From IMG/VR virus record IMGVR_UViG_3300043100_000006, positions 1 to 64,000 of that record: 64,000 bases of DNA, one strand, 5' to 3'. This DNA is from a virus. Shown here piece after piece: positions 36,773-58,302 of the stretch (positions are counted from its first letter, which is position 1; the number at the start of each line of letters is the position of its first letter). Both the position numbers and the translations under genes were made by a program. The notes under the pieces were generated by a model. The model did not search any database. It was not told where the DNA came from and saw nothing but the letters and a program-made list of their open reading frames with translations.

Positions 36773-38062
36773 ATGACGTTCCGCTCACGAACCGATTTGA
36801 ACGTACAGCAACTTCCGAGCACCATCCCGGTGATGGGGCCAGCGGGTTCTATTGTTACCGACCCTGCTTTCGGATGTCAGATCATTCGCGCTACGGATGA
36901 GAACTCAATTCTGTTATCGGGGAAGCCGAGTGCGTTCTGTACTGCGGGAGACGGCGGGTCCGCTGATGTCAACGTGTGGAACATGGATTCGACGATGTTG
37001 TACGTGCAGGATGCAGGCGGAGGCGGATTCATTCTCAGTTTTAATCCGCTAACCTTGGCAGTGAAGCGCATCTTTACATCGTTCCGTCCGATTGGGGGTT
37101 GCGTATTCAGTCGAGTAAGCCCAACGGTCCTATTCAATTTGAACGGCACGCAATTTCTGCAATACGATCTCTCGAATCAGTCTTTATCTACTCCTCCGGC
37201 GCCGGTTCTCGTCTGTGACTTTGCCGAGCAGTTGCCCGCGACGGCAACATGGAAGAGCATAGGAGGAGTGGAAAACGGCGATACCGTATTCACGGCTGCA
37301 TTCTCCACTGCTGGCGACCAGGGAACAGGAATTTATGCTTGCTGTTATATCGTCGGCTGCGGGTATCGCACTTGGAATACGGAAACCGGTGTAGTAAGTG
37401 GCACGTTTGGGACACAGGGAACGGTCAGTTTTCCCGATCGATTTACGATCCACAATGTGAAAGGGAATAAGACCGGCCAGTGGCTAGTGGTAGCAGCAAC
37501 CACGAAGTTCGCCGGGGCGATTGGAGAGGGACCGTATCTCTGGAACATCAACACGTTGCAGGTTGGCAATATCGGTGTAGTGTGGGGCGGGCACTGGACT
37601 GCCGGTTACTGCGAATTCTACAATTGGGACAGTTCTGACAAATTCGGTATCCCATACGGGGCGCACGTTCGGCGCTCGCTTTACAATTTGGGGCAGCCAA
37701 ACAGGATAGCAAACCCGAGCCCGACGCCAACGTTGATGACCGCGTTGGATGATCACGTAAGCATGAATGGGCAGGATAGCTCACTGTTGATTTCTGGGAC
37801 GGCGTGGGTTGTTCCTGTGGGGTCACCACTCGCACCATTTCCGGCAGCCTGGTACAACGAAATCATCGGGTTTGATCTGACGGGCACGGGCATTGTCTGG
37901 CGCTTTTGTCATACGTTCACGAGAGGCAGTTCGGGAAACTTTTATGCCGACAACGCCATTGCGTGCGGCGATCAGTTGAATACTTTCGTGGCGTTCACGT
38001 CGGACTGGATGGGAACGCTGTCTGGGGAGCGAGCGGACGTGTTTATCGTTGCACTGAAATAG
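36773..38062 (+). CDS. beta-propeller-like protein, possibly carbohydrate-active
   Basis: DPAFG..IIR.TD start, beta-rich repeats, VAFTSDW..DVFIV end. Confidence 0.6.
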   Translation: MTFRSRTDLNVQQLPSTIPVMGPAGSIVTDPAFGCQIIRATDENSILLSGKPSAFCTAGDGGSADVNVWNMDSTMLYVQDAGGGGFILSFNPLTLAVKRIFTSFRPIGGCVFSRVSPTVLFNLNGTQFLQYDLSNQSLSTPPAPVLVCDFAEQLPATATWKSIGGVENGDTVFTAAFSTAGDQGTGIYACCYIVGCGYRTWNTETGVVSGTFGTQGTVSFPDRFTIHNVKGNKTGQWLVVAATTKFAGAIGEGPYLWNINTLQVGNIGVVWGGHWTAGYCEFYNWDSSDKFGIPYGAHVRRSLYNLGQPNRIANPSPTPTLMTALDDHVSMNGQDSSLLISGTAWVVPVGSPLAPFPAAWYNEIIGFDLTGTGIVWRFCHTFTRGSSGNFYADNAIACGDQLNTFVAFTSDWMGTLSGERADVFIVALK

Positions 38063-38238
38063 GGGGCGATTGCTATGCCATCGGGCGGAGTGCTTGTATT
38101 ATGCGCAGCCCTTGCTACTGTGATGTACGTTGGCGACAAGGTTGTGCACCTTAAGCCGATCCAGAAAGCAAATCACGAGATCTGCCGCGTCGCGACAGGA
38201 TTTCAGAAGTGCAAGACCGCAAAGAGATTGGAGACCAA

Positions 38239-39129
38239 GTGACATCGAAGGAATTGGTACAGAAAACTGTGCTGGGCTGGAGTGGCAGACTGGCCGCACA
38301 CGAAATTTCTTACAATGGCGACGGCCATGTGCATCGTGCGATTCCTTACAACCCCACGACCCCAGCGGTTGCGCTACAGAAGGCGCAACTGATGCAGTCG
38401 GACGGAGTGGATATTTGCATCTGCACATGGCAGGGGCCGTGGGCAGAATCCTGCAATGCGGCAGCGATAGCGATGCTGGCCGCGTGTGAGCAGGTAGGGT
38501 TGCAGTTTGCGCTACTGCTTGATCCTGGCGGAATGCAGAAGTGGCTAGCAAATCAATCGCAAGCAACAATTACGGACAATGTGATAGCGGCTCTGCAAGC
38601 GGTCTCCACGGTGCAAATGATCGACTCCCCGGCGTACGTGCCAGAACGATGGGTATTGGATTTCAACACAGGCGCGAACCTGTCTACGCTGAAGACGGCG
38701 TTGCCATCGCTTACGTTCCTAGAACAGGGGGCGGGTTTCAGTTGGATTAGCATTCCAGCAATCACAGATTCGACGGCTCGCAACACTGCCGCAGTGGCGA
38801 ATCTGAAAACGCAGCACGCAAACCCAGCAATGAAGATTGCCAGTTTCTGCAAGTCGTTCGATGACAGCGGCCAGCCTTTACCGACAGGAGTGCAATCGCA
38901 ATCGGCGTTTGATGCTGCAGGCGGAGTCCGAAACCTCACCAACTCCGTGTGGAGCGGCCCAGCCCGCATTCTGGAATCGTTTGCGGGCCAGTTCTCGCTG
39001 CAACAGTTGGCGACGATCAACCCGGCGACGCCGGTGATCGCCATCTTAACTTGGTCGGATTACGACGAACAGAGTTCCGGTCCTCGCGAAAAAGTAGTCG
39101 CCGAGGAGCAGGGAATCGTCTGGTTATAG
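38239..39129 (+). CDS. putative glycoside hydrolase (GH71/GH99-like TIM barrel)
   Basis: Q..LM..DGVD....WQG; FDD; ILTWSDYDE resembles the TWND..E motif. Confidence 0.55.
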   Translation: MTSKELVQKTVLGWSGRLAAHEISYNGDGHVHRAIPYNPTTPAVALQKAQLMQSDGVDICICTWQGPWAESCNAAAIAMLAACEQVGLQFALLLDPGGMQKWLANQSQATITDNVIAALQAVSTVQMIDSPAYVPERWVLDFNTGANLSTLKTALPSLTFLEQGAGFSWISIPAITDSTARNTAAVANLKTQHANPAMKIASFCKSFDDSGQPLPTGVQSQSAFDAAGGVRNLTNSVWSGPARILESFAGQFSLQQLATINPATPVIAILTWSDYDEQSSGPREKVVAEEQGIVWL

Positions 39130-39164
39130 GGCTATAGCCGTGAAAGTGATCAGAGGGAACTGAA

Positions 39165-40889
39165 ATGGCGCGCGGACTTGTCCAATCCGGGTTCGGTAAG
39201 GCAACGCCGATCAGCCGTGGCTTGTTCGAGCGATTCACGGATGGCGTGAACACACAGATTTCGTCCATCAACCCGATGGGATGGATGGGGCCGTCGCAGC
39301 CGATGGCCAGAGTGGCGCCACGCGGGACGCAGACGCGCATCTGGGATTACCGCTTTGGGCAGAACATCGATTACACGCCGAAAGCGTTCGAGGGTTACTG
39401 CTACGAGGTGCTACGAGACCTAGCGGACGGTTTCGATCTTCTACGGATGGTGATCGAGACGCGAAAGGATCAAGTGAGTCGCGTTCCGCATTCGTTCACA
39501 ATGCGAGCGCAGCCAGGCGAGCCGCCGAGCAAAACGAAAGAGCGACAGTTGGAAGATAAGCGCATTGGTAAACTGGAGGAGTTTTTCTCGAAGCCAGATG
39601 GCGTGCACAGTTTCTCCGACTGGCAGCGCATGATTCTCGAAGACATGTTCGTGATCGATGCGCCTTGTGTCTGCCCGCGCTGGCGGAGAGATGGCGGAGT
39701 GTACGGGTTCGATGCGATCGACGGCGCAACAATCAACATCCTAGTGGATGAGAACGGGAGACTTCCGGAGCCGCCAGACCCAGCGTATCGGCAGATTATC
39801 AAAGGGATGCCGGCAGTGGATATGATGATTCCGACGCCGGCAATTCGGAAGTCGGATCAGTTATTTTATTTCCCACGCAACGTGCGGACGCGCTGGCTTT
39901 ATGGATATAGTCCAGTAGAACAAGTTGTGCTGACCGTCAATATTGGACTGCGGCGCCAAATCCATCAACTTCAATGGTACACGGATGGGACGATCCCAGA
40001 TGTGTTTCTCGAAGCACCAGAGGGTTTGAGCGAGGACCGCTTCACGCAATTCGAGGCGATGTGGAACGAGAAGTTTGCGACCACTCAGGCCCGCCGCAAA
40101 GCTAATTTCATTCCGCACGGGACTGCGGTCACCTTCGCGAAAGACCCGAAACTGAAAGACGAGATGGATGAATATCTCGCACGCAAGATCGCTTACGCAT
40201 TCAGCGTGTCGCCGACAGCTCTGGTCAAGATGGTGAATCGAGCGGCCGGCCAGCAGATGAGCGAGGACGCGAAAGCGGAAGGGCTCGAACCCATCTTGGC
40301 ATGGTGGAAAGAGTTCATGGACGATCTACTTGGATTCATGGGCTGCTCGGATATCGAGTATGCGAACGGACAGAGTTCACGCGAGAATCCTCTGCTGCAA
40401 GCGCAGGTCAATCAAATTTATCTGAGCACGGTCGACGACCAGGGCCACAGCGTTCTGCGGGCAAATGAAGTTAGAGAGGATCTCGGTCGCGACCAAATTG
40501 ACTACGCCGCCGAGGACGACGAAGAATTCCAGAAAGGACTCGATCAGCAGAGTCAGCGCAACGATCTTCAGGCAGACAGCCAGGAGGATATGATGCGCCG
40601 GCAGCAGCAAGTACAGCACGCCGACGAGCCGCGGCCCAAGGCGGCAAAGGCGCTTGCGGAGTGTCCGCTGTGCCGCACGGGAATGAAGGTAGTGATGCGC
40701 GACGGCGATACAGTGACCGGGCCGCATCACGTGGACAGCGACGGCACAGAACTGTTGTGTTATGCGGCGCAAAAGGTTTTGGGTACGGCGCAAAAAAAAA
40801 AGGCTCGAAGCCTACGCGCTACCGGGTCGACTCGGGTTCTCGGAGCGAGCGTCACACGCAAGCTTTTGTCCGAACATCGAACTTACTGA
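39165..40889 (+). CDS. portal protein
   Basis: LRDLAD...LR.VIETRKDQ, IDGATI, YRQIIKG, YGYSPVEQ, YTDGTIP; position after terL. Confidence 0.92.
   Translation: MARGLVQSGFGKATPISRGLFERFTDGVNTQISSINPMGWMGPSQPMARVAPRGTQTRIWDYRFGQNIDYTPKAFEGYCYEVLRDLADGFDLLRMVIETRKDQVSRVPHSFTMRAQPGEPPSKTKERQLEDKRIGKLEEFFSKPDGVHSFSDWQRMILEDMFVIDAPCVCPRWRRDGGVYGFDAIDGATINILVDENGRLPEPPDPAYRQIIKGMPAVDMMIPTPAIRKSDQLFYFPRNVRTRWLYGYSPVEQVVLTVNIGLRRQIHQLQWYTDGTIPDVFLEAPEGLSEDRFTQFEAMWNEKFATTQARRKANFIPHGTAVTFAKDPKLKDEMDEYLARKIAYAFSVSPTALVKMVNRAAGQQMSEDAKAEGLEPILAWWKEFMDDLLGFMGCSDIEYANGQSSRENPLLQAQVNQIYLSTVDDQGHSVLRANEVREDLGRDQIDYAAEDDEEFQKGLDQQSQRNDLQADSQEDMMRRQQQVQHADEPRPKAAKALAECPLCRTGMKVVMRDGDTVTGPHHVDSDGTELLCYAAQKVLGTAQKKKARSLRATGSTRVLGASVTRKLLSEHRTY
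40796..40802 (+). promoter_or_regulatory. -1 slippery heptamer A_AAA_AAG in A10 run
   Basis: In the portal frame CAA AAA AAA AAG; the -1 frame is open to 42241. Confidence 0.65.
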
Positions 40890-42241
40890 GGCGATTCTTT
40901 AAGCGGTGTCAGGCGAAGTTGGTTGCAATCGCCAAGGAAGTCCCGTCGCTGGGAAAGATTCCAGAGGGCTGGCACTTCTACGATCCTGAGAGTGGAGCCG
41001 AGCTGCCGAAGGCTGCGGCCGTCGATATGATGCGCGACGTGATGAAGGTCGCGACCGCAATGATCGTGCTGCCGGACTCTCTGGCGGCGGAAGTAATTGA
41101 GAAGGGCACGGCGCTGATTGCGGACGAAGACTTGGCTGGCAAAGGCCGAGAGGATGAGCCGCACATCACGGTCAAGTTTGGGGTGAGGGAAAATCTGGAC
41201 GAGACCGCGGAAGTGCTGGTGGAGTTCTATCCGTTCGATGTGACGCTGGGCAAGACGCGAATCTTTTCTCCAAGCCAGAACAGCGGAGGCGGATCGGTTG
41301 TGTACGTGGAAGTGATTGCGCCGATCCTACAAGACCTGCACGACCAAGTGAGCGATGGCATCGGCTTGCGGCACGATGGCGCGGATTATGTTCCGCATGT
41401 CACGCTGGCCTACGTGAAGACGGAAGAGGCTGCGAAGTACGACGGACTCGATACGTTCGAGGGGTTGAAGTTCACGGCGAATGTAGTGACGATCAAGCGG
41501 AAAGAGGGCGGCGTTTGGAACTTGGACCTCGGCGCTGCACGGCTCACGGCAAAGGCCGGAGACGATGAAGAGGATGAGGAAATCGAGGAAATCATTCTCG
41601 ATATTCTCAAAGGGTTCCAGGAGATCGTACCTGCGGTGCAGCACGAACTGGAAGGCACGTATCTGGACCAGGCGCAGACGATGGCGACTGCGATGGAGAG
41701 CACGGTCCAGTTGTCGGTACTGAATCAGCGAGCTCTGGACTACGCAAGAGCGCGAGCCGCTGAGATGGTTGGCATGAAGTGGGTGGACGGCGAGTTAGTC
41801 ACGAACCCGAACGCAGTCTGGGCAATTACGGACACGACGCGGGATGTGCTGAAGGATCTGATCACAAACGCATTCACGCAAGGGCAGACGCCGGCAGAGT
41901 TGACGAAGTCAATTGAGCAGACGGGAGTCTTCAGCGCATATCGAGCTGACATGATCGCTTCGACTGAGATGTCGAAGGCTACGATCCAAGGCTCCCTTGG
42001 AACGGCGAAGGATGTGGGTGCGATTGGTAAGCAGTGGGAAACCAGCGGCGACCACGACATTGACGACGAATGCAACGACAACGAGGACGATGGCACGGTT
42101 GCAATTGGGGACAGTTTTAGTAGCGGGGATGATGGTCCCCCTTCCCATCCAAACTGCAATTGTGCCCTTGTGTATATCACGGCGGACGATCCAGAAGCAG
42201 CGGACCTGCTGGAACCTGAAACTGTAGGGGCGGAGGATTGA
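40802..42241 (+). CDS. 2H-phosphoesterase (Acb1/T4 gp57B-like) + MuF/SPP1-gp7 minor head protein; probably reached by frameshift from portal
   Basis: EPHITVKFG and YVPHVTLAY HxT motifs; C-terminal RADMIASTE, KQW, C..N, PP.HPNCNC. Confidence 0.85.
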   Translation, partial: GSKPTRYRVDSGSRSERHTQAFVRTSNLLRRFFKRCQAKLVAIAKEVPSLGKIPEGWHFYDPESGAELPKAAAVDMMRDVMKVATAMIVLPDSLAAEVIEKGTALIADEDLAGKGREDEPHITVKFGVRENLDETAEVLVEFYPFDVTLGKTRIFSPSQNSGGGSVVYVEVIAPILQDLHDQVSDGIGLRHDGADYVPHVTLAYVKTEEAAKYDGLDTFEGLKFTANVVTIKRKEGGVWNLDLGAARLTAKAGDDEEDEEIEEIILDILKGFQEIVPAVQHELEGTYLDQAQTMATAMESTVQLSVLNQRALDYARARAAEMVGMKWVDGELVTNPNAVWAITDTTRDVLKDLITNAFTQGQTPAELTKSIEQTGVFSAYRADMIASTEMSKATIQGSLGTAKDVGAIGKQWETSGDHDIDDECNDNEDDGTVAIGDSFSSGDDGPPSHPNCNCALVYITADDPEAADLLEPETVGAED

Positions 42242-43403
42242 GATGGCGCAATATCAGCCCGACCCAGCACCGATCACGCAGCACGGAATGGGTCCGTGGA
42301 CGAAGCCAGTATCACCACAGCCTCCAGTGACACCGGGAACGGTGAAAGCGCAACCGCCTGAGAAGCATCAAGGGAGCGCAGATCATCCACAAGGCAGACC
42401 GCCGAAATGAGTGAGCAGGGAGACTTCGCGAAGCAGGTTGCCGACGAAGCCGCGTTGCTGATTGAGATGAAGCGGTTGGACCGCAAGAAGCACACGGCAT
42501 ATCTGTGCGGCCAGCGTGCAACCTCGATGGGCATGATGCGAGTGTCGCCGTACTACGAGGATGGGGCAGCGAACGCGGCGTTCTTTGCGGGGTTCGATGG
42601 CAGGGATGAGCCGACGCTGGATGAACTACTCGCTCCGGTGCTTGAGACGACAAATAATGGCGTATCCGCTTAATGTCGAACTGAATGGGCCGCCGCAACC
42701 AATCGCTGGCATCCAGTCCTGGAAATGCGGCATGTGTCCGTTTGAGTTCGTTCATATCGAACCAGAAGAGACAATTCTCGCGGCGTTAAAAATGAGCGAG
42801 CATCTATTTCTGATGCACGGCAAGTCAATGAGCGAAGTTCCTGTGCACTGCCAGCAGCACTAATTCAGGAGGAAGTCATGAGTAGGGCACGGCAAGCGAA
42901 GCAAGTAAAGAACACGGTCGTAACGGCGAAGTGCAAACTGAGCCGCGAAGAGTGCAAGGACGCAAACTGCCCGGTGCACGGCGAGCCGAACGACGAAGCG
43001 CCAGGTCCGGCGCCAGCAACGAAGGGCGCGGAGAAACTGGAAGCGGCGGAGGAAGAGGGCCGCAGGATCGCGGCGACTGGCCACGCGATTCCGATTACCG
43101 CAGTTGAGGCGGACGAATCCCTCCACCCGGTGGACTTGCCGGGTCATGTGCTCACGATGTTGCGCGAGGCGCACGACACGATCAAACACATTCAACATCA
43201 GAACGATTTCACGCGTGACCTTTTGAGGCGGATGGAAAATGTACTGGAGCCGCCTCCGGAGTTGATGACGATCGAAGAGGCACGGCGGCGTTTGGGCGTA
43301 GGTGATGTGATTCGATGCAGCGTAAAGCCGGACCAGTTAGCAGGATAAGCAAGGCACGCGCACGAAAATTCAAGTGGCGCGATGCGCCAGACAGAGGAAT
43401 TGT

Positions 43404-44012
43404 ATGGGAGCACCCAAAGTTCTAGCGGCGGTTGGGAGCACGCCGGTAGCAGTGACGGCAGGCGCAAGCGGATGGCAGGTTAGCATCGCGCCAGCACCAG
43501 GGCAGAGCGGAGCGTATCAGGTTTACGATCAAAACCAGAATCTACTGGCAACGATCCAGGGGAACGCGAGCCCATACCAGTGGACGCTTTCCCAGACCGG
43601 AGACCCATATTTCTCTGGGCAGATCGTCGGCTACGTGTCGGTGCCATCGGGCACGATGAACATGCTAGTGACGGACACTGGAACGCAAGCGACCGCCGTA
43701 CCGCAGAGCGGCGGAGCATTTGGAGCCGCAGGAGCGATCACGCAAAAGAGTGGGCGCGCATTCCTAACCGGTGCAACGGCCACGGCTTACACTTTGGCTG
43801 CGCCGACGCCTGGAGCAGATGACTTCAAGTTGCTTGAGATTACTGACGCGGTGGGTGCCGCTCACACAATCACAACACCAGTGAACGCTCTGAATGGCAC
43901 GCAAAGTATCGCGACGTTTGGCGGCACGCGAGGAACTGTGTTGGCATTGCGAGCCTACCAAGGCGTGTGGTACGCAAGCCCGAGTACCCCGGTTACGCTT
44001 AGCGGAACATAA
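43404..44012 (+). CDS. putative virion decoration protein
   Basis: A/G/T-rich, beta-rich; AYTLAAPTPGADD...L.A.QGVW. Confidence 0.5.
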   Translation: MGAPKVLAAVGSTPVAVTAGASGWQVSIAPAPGQSGAYQVYDQNQNLLATIQGNASPYQWTLSQTGDPYFSGQIVGYVSVPSGTMNMLVTDTGTQATAVPQSGGAFGAAGAITQKSGRAFLTGATATAYTLAAPTPGADDFKLLEITDAVGAAHTITTPVNALNGTQSIATFGGTRGTVLALRAYQGVWYASPSTPVTLSGT

Positions 44013-44668
44013 CAAGAAAGGCACGGCATGGCAACGGATCAATTATCCTCCGCGAATGTTTTGCGGGCACAGCTCGATGCTGCGAACGAATTGCTCCGAA
44101 GGTTGACGGCAGTCCTAGCCGCGGTGCTGGTGGATCATCATCGCGGCAGACTGCTGATAACGAGCGAGACGGTAGATGCGATGTACGGCGACCCGGCGCA
44201 AGAGAACGGGTTTATGGTGGATGTGCAAACCGTGCAGCCACTTGGCAAGCACAGGTTGCAGGTAATGCAACCGAATGGCTCAACGTATGTACCAGCACCA
44301 GTAGTGATTGAAGGCGAGACACTGGAAGCCTCGGTCTGCGAGGATCCAAATCATAAGCGCGGCAACGGCTTGCGTTGCGAGGAGTGTGGGAAACTTCTGG
44401 AGAAAAAGGCGTAATGACTCAGGACGAGGTTGACGACTTCGTGATCCCGTCAATATCGTTTACGTCGCGCCCTTCTCATCTCGGGAACGATGGTAGCTGG
44501 GACCCTGCCATGTCGTTACGCAAACCAAGGGAGGCCACGCGGGAGCAGGTTGACAAGGCGGTAAGTCACTTTATAGACCTGTTGCACGCTGGCATCGTGC
44601 CTATGCCCTACAAGCCATAGGTGTATGGGGTGCCAATGGCACGCTGTTGCCAGGAGAGGATTTCTGAC

Positions 44669-46555
44669 ATGGACGCAGATAAGGCAGTCCAGTTTCTCGT
44701 GAAAGATGACAAGGGTAAGGGACATCTGCCCTACACGAAAGCGGACGGCAAGCCTGACCGCGGTCTCATGGGGGCGGCGCACGCAGCTCTGACAAGTCCC
44801 AAAGGATTTCGTGGCAAAAGGTACGAAGGGCCAGACAAAGCAAAGGCGCTCGCAAAACTGAAGAAGATTTATAAGGAGGAGAAGATGGAACTTCCCAGCG
44901 ATAAGGCCGCCGCTGCCCTAATTCATTTAATGGCCCTAAAAGGGCGAATTACAAAGAACGGAGAGCCAGAAAAGCGTGCAACCTTCGCAATCAAGGGCTG
45001 TTACGAAGCACCCCCTGATGATCCTGAACCTGGTCTGTTCGTGGAAGGCATTCTAGCTGCTGAGGAGGTTGATTTCGAGGGGGAAGTGATGGACTACAAA
45101 TCCTCGAAGCCGAACTTTCAGCGCTGGAATAAAAGCTTCTCCGACATGACTGGCGGAAAGAGCGTCGGGAACGTGCGTGGTCAACACAACCCGAAAATTG
45201 CGGCCGGTAAATTTGTCGAGATGTCATACGACGACGACAAACTATCTATTCCCGTACTGGCGAAAGTCGTCGATCCTGTGGAAGCAGATAAAGTACGGCA
45301 AGGCGTGTATACCTCATTTTCCATCGGCGCACATTACGCGCGGAAATGGAGAGATGGGAAATATACCCGCTGGACCGCCGACCCGTTCGAGGGTTCGCTG
45401 GTGGATTTTGGCTCGATTCCGATGACTCGCGGATTCACCTACCGCGCAGCCGATGGCAAGGAAGAGCAGCGAGAATTCGACGGCGGGCGCCGCGAGTTAC
45501 GAAAATCGTTCGAAGCGCTCGGCAAACCGCTGGTGGTTGAGGAAGAGGATCGCGTTGTGAAGGCCATCACTGGGATGGCGGCGGCGAGGAAGGGCCTGTA
45601 CACAATTTCTGGATTCGCGCAGTTGGTGCAAGAGTTGATCTATATGCGCGACTCCATCACCTTCGAGCGAGAGATGGAAGGTGATGCCTCTCCGGTCACG
45701 GATCGCGTGGCCGAAGCAACGCAAGAACTTTTGGAATGCCTTGCAGCCTATACGCAAGAACAGGTCAGCGAGGAAATCGGCAAGACTAAGGAGAACACCG
45801 TGGAACTGAAGGACCTTGTAAAAGATATCGACACGAAGCACGCATCCGCAGCAGCCGATCCCGCTGACAGCAAGCCAACCCCCGACGCCATCAAGACGGC
45901 ACTGGATAGCGTCAACGAAGGCCTGAAGGTTTTGAAGGCCGCAGGCTATTCTCTGCAACCTGGCTCCGCACCAGCCGGGCATGACAGTCCGGTGCGCGCA
46001 TCGGACACAGACAGTAAGGCTGTGGCGACCGACCCGAAGGCGAAGGGTCACGCGGAACTGAGCAAAGAAGATTGCAAGGCGGAGGAGTGCGACGTGCACA
46101 AGAAGGCGAAGGCTGCGGCCGATCCTGACGGCGAGAAGTGCAACAAGACCGCCGAGGAATGCAACGACGAGAAGTGCATGACGCACAAGGGCAAGAAGTC
46201 GGCAGCGGCGGGAGCCAACGGGGATGTCGCCCTGAAGCGCGCGGACGTTGTGAGCATCGTGAATGATACGATGGGCACGAAGTTGACGGAGTTCAAGACC
46301 GACTTCCAGCGAGAGGTAGTTGAGCCGCTCTCCACTCAACTGAAAGCGATTGGTGACACAATGGTCGCTCTCGGCGAAGTAAAGTTGCCGACACGCATCG
46401 TAGCGCGTCCCGGCACCAAGGCTGTGAGCAAGGACGATGAAGCAATCAAGGAAGCAGAGGACGCGCAGAAGGCAATCGAGAAAGAAAAGAAAGACGGCAC
46501 CACTACCAGCACCATTCTGCGAATTCGGGAGAACGGCCAGCGCGTTAGCTGGTAG
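44669..46555 (+). CDS. prohead protease + scaffold
   Basis: EEVDFEGEVMDY, NVRGQH, GVYTSFSIG, EGSLVD; charged helical C-terminus; immediately before the capsid gene. Confidence 0.85.
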   Translation: MDADKAVQFLVKDDKGKGHLPYTKADGKPDRGLMGAAHAALTSPKGFRGKRYEGPDKAKALAKLKKIYKEEKMELPSDKAAAALIHLMALKGRITKNGEPEKRATFAIKGCYEAPPDDPEPGLFVEGILAAEEVDFEGEVMDYKSSKPNFQRWNKSFSDMTGGKSVGNVRGQHNPKIAAGKFVEMSYDDDKLSIPVLAKVVDPVEADKVRQGVYTSFSIGAHYARKWRDGKYTRWTADPFEGSLVDFGSIPMTRGFTYRAADGKEEQREFDGGRRELRKSFEALGKPLVVEEEDRVVKAITGMAAARKGLYTISGFAQLVQELIYMRDSITFEREMEGDASPVTDRVAEATQELLECLAAYTQEQVSEEIGKTKENTVELKDLVKDIDTKHASAAADPADSKPTPDAIKTALDSVNEGLKVLKAAGYSLQPGSAPAGHDSPVRASDTDSKAVATDPKAKGHAELSKEDCKAEECDVHKKAKAAADPDGEKCNKTAEECNDEKCMTHKGKKSAAAGANGDVALKRADVVSIVNDTMGTKLTEFKTDFQREVVEPLSTQLKAIGDTMVALGEVKLPTRIVARPGTKAVSKDDEAIKEAEDAQKAIEKEKKDGTTTSTILRIRENGQRVSW

Positions 46556-56789: not shown

Positions 56790-57371
56790 TCAGGGAACAT
56801 GCTTCCAGATGTCGCGGCGCACGATTAGCCCGATCAGAGATGGCGAAACGTCATATTTGTCAGCAAGCCGACGATACTCCGTACCAATACGGGCCTTGCA
56901 ATCAGTGCGTATCTCTCTCACCTGATCCTCGGTGAGTTTGGACTGAGGAAGGTCCTCTCCCCGCTTGGTGCGGTTGCGCTTGTTTCTGTCGGCGGCGTTC
57001 TGGGCGTCAGTCCCTTCGATAACGTGGCGGGGGTTAAAGCAAGCCGGGGTATCGCAGGTATGGCGAGCCAAAGGATCAGGCCAGCGCCCGTGAGTCAGGT
57101 AGAAAGCAAGCCTATGTGCCCGTACTCTCTGCCCTGCTCCAAAATAGCAACGCCCATAGCCACCACTCATTTTGCCAAATGGCCAGATTAGGCACGCATC
57201 TGAATTGTGGGCTGCGATAGCCGTTTTCAGATAAAGCAACCGTGCGTCAGCATTTGCGAGATGCCGCGTCCGCATCTCCTGAAGAACGTCTAATTGTGCA
57301 GTAGAAGGTTTGCTAGAATTACGAGGAAGCATCGTTGCCCTCCGATGGCAATGGTGGTTTATGGCGAGCAC
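56790..57371 (-). CDS. HNH endonuclease (opposite strand within tail operon)
   Basis: CLIWP...GYG...AHR...RHTCDTPACFNPRHV..GT..QN..D; KLTEDQV. Confidence 0.85.
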   Translation of the reverse strand: MLAINHHCHRRATMLPRNSSKPSTAQLDVLQEMRTRHLANADARLLYLKTAIAAHNSDACLIWPFGKMSGGYGRCYFGAGQRVRAHRLAFYLTHGRWPDPLARHTCDTPACFNPRHVIEGTDAQNAADRNKRNRTKRGEDLPQSKLTEDQVREIRTDCKARIGTEYRRLADKYDVSPSLIGLIVRRDIWKHVP

Positions 57372-57460
57372 GCTTTCGCGAGCGTCTCGCCTTTCCTTAT
57401 TCTAGCAGAGCGCGAGATCGCAAGTCCAAACGCCCTAGGCGTAGAAAAAGGAGAAAGCAT

Positions 57461-58216
57461 ATGGTAATCGAATTCGGAAGTGGGGTACTATTTGGTAAGC
57501 CCATCGCGGGCAACCTGCCCACAAACCCGACGCCGGTGCGTCTCGGCGTCTTACAAGAATGCGCGATCAGTTTCAAGGGAGACTTGAAAAAGCTTTACGG
57601 TCAGTATCAGTTTCCGGTAGCGACGGCGCGCGGCAAAGTGGATATCGACATCAAAGGCAAGTTTGCGGCCTTCGATCCGATCGCAATGAACCAGTTGATG
57701 TTCGCGCAGCCGCAAACGGCGGGCATTACGCTGATTGCGGATAGCGAGAGCCATCCAATTGCAGCGACCGTTACCACTACGAACGCCTCAACCTATGTGG
57801 CCTCGGGCGGAGACTTCGGCGTGCAGAACGGTACGACGGGCGCGACGATGATCAACGTGCCATCCTCTCCGGCTGTTGGCCAGTACAGCGTGAACACCGC
57901 GACGGGCGTCTACTCGTTCAACGCGACAGATGTCACGAGCGGGTTCCCGGTTCTGATCAGTTATTTGTATCTGGCCTCGACGCGCGGCTGGACTACGGCC
58001 CTCACGCAACAGCTCATGGGCTACGCTCCGGTAGTCGAGATGTTTTTCTATGGCGACTTCCGCGGCAAGTACCTGGCGTGCCAGTTGAACAACGTAACCA
58101 TCGGAGATATCTCGCTACCCTCGAAGCTTGAGGACTTCTGGATGTCCGATCTCACTGGGTCCGCTAATGCGGACGCGAGCAATAACGTCGGCTATCTGTA
58201 CTCGGATGCCGCATAA
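57461..58216 (+). CDS. major tail (tube) protein
   Basis: FGSG.L...P...G.LQE...F...K.LYG.YQFP...ARGK; AAGGAG RBS. Confidence 0.85.
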   Translation: MVIEFGSGVLFGKPIAGNLPTNPTPVRLGVLQECAISFKGDLKKLYGQYQFPVATARGKVDIDIKGKFAAFDPIAMNQLMFAQPQTAGITLIADSESHPIAATVTTTNASTYVASGGDFGVQNGTTGATMINVPSSPAVGQYSVNTATGVYSFNATDVTSGFPVLISYLYLASTRGWTTALTQQLMGYAPVVEMFFYGDFRGKYLACQLNNVTIGDISLPSKLEDFWMSDLTGSANADASNNVGYLYSDAA

Positions 58217-58302
58217 TTCCCCCCCCCCCCCCCTCCACTTGTCGGGCGGAGCGTTCTGCTTCGCCCGACCTCTAACCTCATTCCCCGAAAGGAACGAAAG
58301 CC

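Follow-up and report, generated by a model that had tools for sequence, protein, structure and literature searches.

A conserved A10 run as the probable recoding site joining a viral portal gene to a 2H phosphoesterase-MuF frame

Conserved recoding in phage structural genes is textbook knowledge for tail chaperones and a few capsid genes. Here we consider a candidate of this kind in the portal gene of a soil phage, found in a stretch of 64,000 nucleotides of viral DNA (positions 1 to 64,000 of the IMG/VR record IMGVR_UViG_3300043100_000006; hereafter the window). The virus record to which the window belongs is complete at 102,179 bp and has direct terminal repeats. Near its end, the portal gene contains a run of ten adenines (A10), and downstream of the run the frame shifted by -1 relative to the portal encodes a 2H phosphoesterase domain followed by a MuF domain. 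Judging from related sequences, we take the A10 run to be a conserved recoding site joining the portal to the 2H-MuF part, with a probability of roughly 0.82; recoding itself is strongly supported by the comparative evidence.

It is known that the tau and gamma products of dnaX depend in Escherichia coli on a ribosomal -1 frameshift on A_AAA_AAG, and in Thermus thermophilus on slippage of the RNA polymerase on a 9-base run (PMC5009743). As in dnaX, one gene would here yield two products in a set ratio via an A run in lysine codons, with a heptamer as in E. coli and a run length as in Thermus, and among the relatives the long form is either encoded in frame or, as predicted, reached by a shift. 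Unlike dnaX, the gene is a phage portal gene, the shift would yield the longer product, and no stem-loop or Shine-Dalgarno (SD)-like stimulator is supported.

A second parallel is the -1 frameshift in the tail assembly chaperone genes G and GT of lambda and most long-tailed phages (Xu, Hendrix and Duda 2004, as cited in PMC7302621). Both cases would have in common a conserved -1 recoding in a morphogenesis operon, a C-terminal extension on a fraction of the upstream protein, and a downstream open reading frame (ORF) without a start of its own. The difference is that here the portal and MuF are involved, the putative slip site is a long homopolymer, and the extension contains an enzyme domain.

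In-frame portal-MuF fusions are known in Microbacterium phages (clusters EA3/EA5/EA8 and EB; PMC7302621). The order, portal and then MuF, is the same in the window, where the two frames match the two halves of the profile phrog_2662. However, the Microbacterium fusions are single ORFs, whereas here the halves, with a 2H domain lying between them, would be joined by slippage and hence in only some of the subunits. Effector and toxin domains have also been described in MuF proteins (Jamet et al. 2017, PMC5576092), as have VIP2-MuF proteins of Microbacterium phages (PMC7302621). In both those proteins and the locus considered here, a MuF head protein encoded beside the portal carries enzymatic cargo, but their cargo is C-terminal to MuF, whereas here it is situated between the portal and MuF, and it is a 2H phosphoesterase, which is not mentioned in the PMC5576092 survey. 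Finally, Acb1 (PF23474; structures 7t26 and 9q2g) resembles the window domain in having the 2H fold and two HxT motifs, in being phage-encoded, and in being the best sequence-profile match in PDB; besides, Acb1 proper occupies the same portal-to-MuF slot in several relatives. In contrast to Acb1, the window domain scores below the Pfam cut-off of that family, is larger (~175 against ~150 aa), and is structurally nearer to LigT/ThpR. In our literature searches, no published portal-MuF recoding was found, only in-frame fusions turned up, and no paper linking Acb1 with MuF was found; the large review of frameshifting and slippage published in 2016 (PMC5009743) nowhere uses the word 'portal' in its full text.

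The portal ORF of the window (39165-40889, plus strand) encodes a zero-frame product of 574 aa and ends with TGA at 40887-40889. It scores above the family cut-off of PF04860 (52.8 bits; cut-off, 39.1) and matches positions 13-465 of the 717 positions of phrog_2662 (E = 9e-53), while positions 485-709 match the MuF part of the -1 ORF; the profile thus spans both frames. At 40791-40802 the portal frame reads CAA AAA AAA AAG, exactly where an earlier note, made from the letters of this DNA, had placed it, the A10 run occupying 40792-40801 (plus strand) and the in-phase heptamer A_AAA_AAG, 40796-40802. The open stretch of the -1 frame extends from 40661 to 42241, the latter end being also the one given in that note. 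After a slip it reads GSKPTR (junction AQKKK-GSKPTR), and the extension (40802-42241, plus strand) comprises 479 aa and a stop. The predicted trans-frame product would thus contain 1025 residues, in the order portal, linker, 2H phosphoesterase, acidic linker, MuF.

The first linker, GSKPTRYRVDSGSRSERHTQAFVRTSNLLRRFFKRCQAK (39 codons; 40802-40918, plus strand), overlaps the zero-frame portal tail. The 2H phosphoesterase domain (41018-41560, plus strand; PF13563 and PF02834) contains the motifs HIT at 41162-41170 and HVT at 41396-41404. The MuF, or SPP1 gp7-like, domain with HPNCNC (41849-42169, plus strand; residues 397-503 of the -1 ORF) matches PF04233 with 44.4 bits (cut-off, 29.6) over positions 3-111 of the 112 in the profile, directly following the portal domain, and scores 36.4 bits, below the cut-off of 39.65, with TIGR01641. 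The two HxT motifs followed by a MuF domain, as read previously from the letters, are where they had been expected, and the remaining coordinates of that note are likewise correct. In the model of the full extension the mean predicted local distance difference test score (pLDDT) is 63.6, and the model is poor everywhere except the 2H domain; for the linker a helix is predicted at residues 16-45, with pLDDT below 50.

The A10 run is the sole A or T run of at least 8 bases in the whole 102,179-bp genome, and is thus hardly a chance feature. Just one further homopolymer exceeds 7 bases, a C15 run at 58219-58233, which is intergenic, situated just after the TAA of the ORF 57335-58216, and followed by a GC-rich hairpin. 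In the Logan contigs of the probable source run (depth 15.5) the A tract is A10 with zero indels, although contigs may hide rare variants. An independent contig from a different soil study (run X2, 2025), spanning 40656-41252, is identical across the run, again with A10 and no indel. The choice between A10 and A11 that the earlier reading had left to read support thus falls on A10 in the assembled contigs of two studies. An assembly error was rejected in view of the agreement of these assemblies and of the layout conserved throughout the clade.

This clade of soil phages of ~100 kb was obtained by a protein search, which recovered portals sharing 54-83% identity in many metagenomes; contigs of ~100 kb carry several of these portals. 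It comprises 22 portals (P0001, P0003-P0023), and all of them retain KK[K/N] followed by 23-37 residues ending in tyrosine and a stop. The three lysines at the run are invariant in an alignment of 14 sequences despite variable flanks. The zero-frame portal tail after KKK (28 residues in the window) is basic and poorly conserved, with 13 of the 28 residues identical to those of the relative L001. The terminal tyrosine and stop of the portals are conserved because the overlapping -1 frame codons for N-L-L-R are conserved. At the DNA level we compared two independent relatives, L001 and L002 (L003 apparently represents the same phage as L002), the other clade members being compared as proteins. 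Both have CTA AAA AAA AAG (A9) in phase, followed by the -1 ORF; hence, a slippery site with the same frame offset is found in homologous portals, one of the checks suggested for the initial prediction.

If the translated frame changes at the run, the codon position tolerating most substitutions should change there as well, and this is what we observe. Upstream of the run (40702-40801), the differences between the window and L001 number 4, 4 and 16 in the first, second and third positions of portal-frame codons, respectively; downstream of it (40802-40889) the counts are 1, 14 and 0. That 14 of 15 differences should fall in one phase has a probability of 2e-6. The second position, which is the wobble position of the -1 frame, remains the richest in differences in every later bin up to 42239. 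The same switch is observed with L002 (4, 3 and 16 before the run; 1, 11 and 0 after it). In the linker, 37 of the 39 codons encode the same residue in the window and L001, the nucleotide differences in the first, second and third positions of the -1 frame codons numbering 0, 1 and 16. Before the run, the -1 frame shows no conservation, and both L001 and L002 have a stop in it 35 codons upstream of the A tract. Given the phase switch and the closed, unconserved -1 frame upstream, we may conclude that ribosomes enter the -1 frame at the run, from the portal frame. To judge from these substitution patterns, both frames are under purifying selection, each on its own side of the run.

One close relative, P0288 (1157 aa), has the predicted join as a natural polypeptide. 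Its portal part is 79% identical to that of the window and continues in frame through IKKK into a linker (..ITSVRIDTSQHSDRHQQAVERTSGLLQKFFKR...PDGWHLYDP) homologous to the -1 linker of the window, and then into MuF (55% identity), without a 2H domain. This is the only in-frame case among the close relatives found, the other 22 of 23 being out of frame. Taken together, the conservation in 22 members, the change at the run in the frame under selection, P0288, and A10 in an assembly obtained independently support the portal-2H-MuF fusion via the A run that had originally been proposed.

In the wider family, many homologues of ~40% identity are single-ORF portal-MuF fusions. MuF was detectable in 17 of 80 genome loci, and in nine of these it is in frame. 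In three loci from metagenome-assembled genomes, L005 (A9; TTA AAA AAA AAC), L009 (A10) and L013 (A10), the portal ends shortly after the run, and the -1 frame directly after KKK encodes (P)IDRxR, the motif which follows KK in the in-frame fusions. The in-phase heptamer is A_AAA_AAG in the window, L001, L002 and L009, A_AAA_AAC in L005, and A_AAA_AAA in L013. All out-of-frame cases with DNA have 9-10 A, and the in-frame loci have at the same place mostly A6-A8, with one A9. The A tract thus marks the portal-MuF junction across the family. In L013 (5389-5670), with A10 at the portal end and DIDRNRP in the -1 frame, a stop follows 90 codons on, after which the MuF ORF continues in that frame; such an interruption might reflect decay of the copy, an error of assembly or a second event of recoding.

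The device could work as follows. The A10 run would serve as a programmed slip site: most decoding would stop 28 codons on, yielding the 574-aa portal, and a minority would shift to the -1 frame, yielding the 1025-aa portal-linker-2H-MuF protein, the shift being due to the RNA polymerase adding one A, to the ribosome slipping on A_AAA_AAG, or to both. Portal C-termini face the capsid interior, hence the extension would be located inside the head at the portal. SPP1 gp7, a MuF protein, sits on the portal in 1-2 copies per capsid (PMC5576092). The slip rate would set the number of extended subunits among the twelve portal subunits, and at a rate between some percent and tens of percent a dodecamer would contain a few of them. 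The linker, which is basic and conserved, might dock the extension or hold a cleavage site. The 2H domain would be a catalytically intact cargo enzyme in a slot that is filled by Acb1, toxins and other effectors in related phages, most likely acting early in infection on a host nucleotide or RNA substrate, for example by degrading an immune signal or by healing 2',3'-cyclic phosphate RNA ends. Virion delivery and an anti-defence role are a guess; there is a precedent for early counter-defence by the virion, as an ejection protein blocking the cyclic-oligonucleotide-based anti-phage signalling system (CBASS) has been reported (bioRxiv 10.1101/2025.07.23.666291).

Several points weigh against this interpretation. 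The in-frame P0288 indicates that the out-of-frame state is not obligatory. Among close relatives, the DNA comparison covers L001 and L002, and the case for the predicted trans-frame protein, as for A11 transcripts, is a comparative and indirect one. A stimulatory structure is not supported by a shuffle test on three sequences, and an SD-like element is not evident upstream. Being covalently linked to the portal, the enzyme could not be ejected unless it is cleaved off, and neither a protease nor a cleavage site was identified. Lastly, the 2H domain falls below both the Acb1 and the ThpR cut-offs.

As to the mechanism, ribosomal -1 slippage and insertion of one A by the RNA polymerase would give the same protein, and we consider the two about equally probable. 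A narrower version, in which the site is a purely ribosomal -1 frameshift of the dnaX/IS3 type on A_AAA_AAG, stimulated by a hairpin, as the earlier note had it, seems rather unlikely. It agrees with the classic heptamer being in phase in the window, L001, L002 and L009, and with the strong tendency of A_AAA_AAG to shift in organisms in which one tRNA-Lys decodes both codons, whereas poor frameshifting is expected where AAG has a tRNA-Lys of its own (PMC5009743). No tRNA genes were found in the 102-kb genome, so that a ribosomal slip would depend on the tRNA-Lys set of the host. The hairpin that had been suggested at 40817-40847 (plus strand) can form, with the CGCU/AGCG stem being possible in the window, L001 and L002, but it is no more stable than shuffled sequences (z from +1.0 to -1.5) and starts 14 nt past the site, rather than the 5-9 nt expected of a stimulatory structure. 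As a stimulator it is not supported; of the features of a ribosomal -1 site, the in-phase heptamer and the conserved, selected -1 ORF lacking a start of its own are present. Moreover, every out-of-frame example with DNA has 9-10 A, more than a ribosomal site needs; the length of 9 is reached via rare leucine codons (CTA in L001 and L002, TTA in L005), and the last codon of the site varies (AAG, AAC, AAA). This pattern would fit slippage of the RNA polymerase, which is efficient in vivo at runs of 9 A or 9 T and is used by T. thermophilus dnaX (PMC5009743).

A second alternative concerns not the joining, but the enzyme that is joined. The domain matches PF13563 with 42.2 bits (cut-off, 27) and PF02834 with 26.9 bits (cut-off, 23.3), and its AlphaFold2 model (pLDDT 90.7) matches many 2H structures at Z above 10, so by profile and fold it is a member of the 2H phosphoesterase superfamily. 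The best structural matches are E. coli LigT (Z 16.1; root mean square deviation 2.1 over 152 residues) and the Deinococcus radiodurans cyclic phosphodiesterase (CPDase; Z 16.0), while Acb1 structures follow at Z 12.9 (7t26, 134 of its 137 residues) and Z 11.4 (9q2g). Thus, Acb1 is not the nearest structure, contrary to what the label 'Acb1-like' of the earlier note would suggest; the 2H fold implied by the label stands, but the domain scores only 21.7 bits with PF23474, below the cut-off of 27, and covers positions 69-114 of the 144 positions of that profile. Matches among viral structures include 2H domains that form part of large structural or 'capsid morphogenesis' proteins in Gordonia and Microbacterium phages. 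Taken together, the profile scores indicate a distinct 2H subfamily with intact catalytic motifs.

If the domain is a LigT/ThpR-like 2',3'-cyclic phosphodiesterase, it could heal RNA ends and so counter host anticodon nucleases or other RNases instead of degrading a signal. The structural ranking given above points in this direction, as do PF13563 being the best Pfam family and TIGR02258 (ThpR) being the sole NCBIfam match with a functional name. However, with TIGR02258 the domain reaches 26.1 bits, the cut-off being 65.7, and is therefore no orthologue of ThpR; the top match in the profile search of PDB sequences is Acb1 9q2g (E = 2e-5), slightly ahead of 5h7e (E = 7.5e-5), the two being about equal; genuine Acb1 occupies the same slot in related fusions; and an RNA ligase or kinase partner was not identified nearby, the neighbouring ORFs tested giving no family matches. 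While the healing of 2',3'-cyclic phosphate RNA ends and an Acb1-like anti-signal role are both plausible, the former as a replacement for the latter is, in our opinion, doubtful.

The neighbours of the 2H domain in the family are relevant here. In-frame portal-2H-MuF proteins are represented by P0131, P0182, P0153, P0180 and P0331, and in P0291, P0294 and P0325 a full-length, high-scoring Acb1 (E from 1e-32 to 1e-37) is situated in frame between the portal and MuF. Since true Acb1 fills the same slot in in-frame relatives, the idea of an anti-defence cargo gains indirect support. To judge by these domain assignments, the portal-to-MuF slot holds effector-type cargo. More generally, the in-frame portal-MuF relatives P0291, P0294, P0325, P0297, P0308, P0310, P0333 and P0329 have varied cargo domains, namely Acb1, ADP-ribosyl exotoxin (PF03496), zeta toxin (PF06414), ParB (PF02195) and topoisomerase I (PF01028). 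In P0123 (647 aa), a relative of the -1 ORF, an insertion of ~230 aa splits the 2H domain after LAYIN, and the domain then resumes.

A bolder extension of the recoding reading is that the whole family uses poly-A as a two-way device, in which a slip extends the portal in out-of-frame members and truncates the product in in-frame ones, thus setting the dose of the MuF effector, and that the new 2H enzyme is pre-loaded in the head and released at infection, destroying a host immune nucleotide signal before phage gene expression. We regard this combination as speculative and improbable as a whole.

Far less likely is the possibility that there is no recoding at all, the 2H-MuF protein (~440 aa) starting on its own at TTG 40919 or nearby and the overlap being incidental. 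Gene callers do predict proteins of 435-444 aa starting near the position of TTG 40919 in the window and its relatives, and the window, L001 and L002 each have, at position 87 or 88, a leucine or valine codon capable of initiation. However, TTG 40919, with a weak AGG upstream, is the sole start-like codon between the slip and the 2H domain, whereas most neighbouring genes checked carry GAGG, GGAGG or AGGAGG, in line with the remark made at the outset that the -1 frame has no convincing ribosome-binding site or start. The called starts are inconsistent between relatives, being equivalent to residues 83 to ~124 of the -1 ORF, so the homologues do not reveal a conserved independent start either. 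A downstream start cannot explain translation of the -1 frame over the 39 conserved linker codons upstream of TTG 40919; in P0288 and the distant in-frame fusions the two parts meet precisely at the A tract; and the -1 frame before the run is not conserved and, in L001 and L002, is interrupted by a stop. Both TTG 40919 and ATG 41027 were rejected as starts for lack of conservation, because of the weak SD, and because the linker upstream is under selection.

The least probable explanation, which places the change in DNA itself, the A run being a hypermutable contingency tract with A11 genomes supplying the fusion (or the locus being a frameshifted pseudogene or an assembly error), agrees with the tendency of homopolymers to mutate through replication slippage and with P0288 and several distant relatives being in frame at the same tract, but conflicts with 22 of 23 close relatives being out of frame across 54-83% identity, with purifying selection on each frame on its own side of the run, and with A10 and no indel variant in both assemblies, even if contigs can hide rare variants.

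If confirmed, recoding at the A run would explain how a few MuF-type copies, together with enzyme cargo, are placed at the unique portal vertex, and many portal genes regarded as 'truncated' and MuF genes regarded as 'start-less' would be reannotated. Recoding would also point to virion-associated effectors (2H, Acb1, ADP-ribosyltransferase, zeta toxin) with a slippage-set dose. Among these, the 2H domain is a tractable candidate in which to look for a novel activity in counter-defence or RNA repair.

Outside the junction, the eight ORFs around the portal (36773-46555) searched against PHROGs gave no matches at E ≤ 0.001, and the six searched against Pfam gave none at E ≤ 0.01; from these neighbours no protease, scaffold or terminase context could be named. 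A search of a phage database yielded no nucleotide match and only two weak protein matches, both to the 2H part. On the evidence of the PHROGs and Pfam searches, the head module of the window phage is very distant from those of described phages.

Directly upstream of the slip site, the portal C-terminus contains a CxxC...HH...C motif (40662-40760, plus strand). C500, C503, H522 and C532 of the portal are invariant in the 14 aligned portals, and the motif, CxxC...(P)HH...C, may form a small zinc-binding module. The portals of L002 (2126-5011, 961 aa) and P0009 have an insertion of ~370 aa after VNRA|C, with LAGLIDADG-type motifs, which the window portal does not have; by these motifs the insertion looks like an intein with a homing endonuclease.

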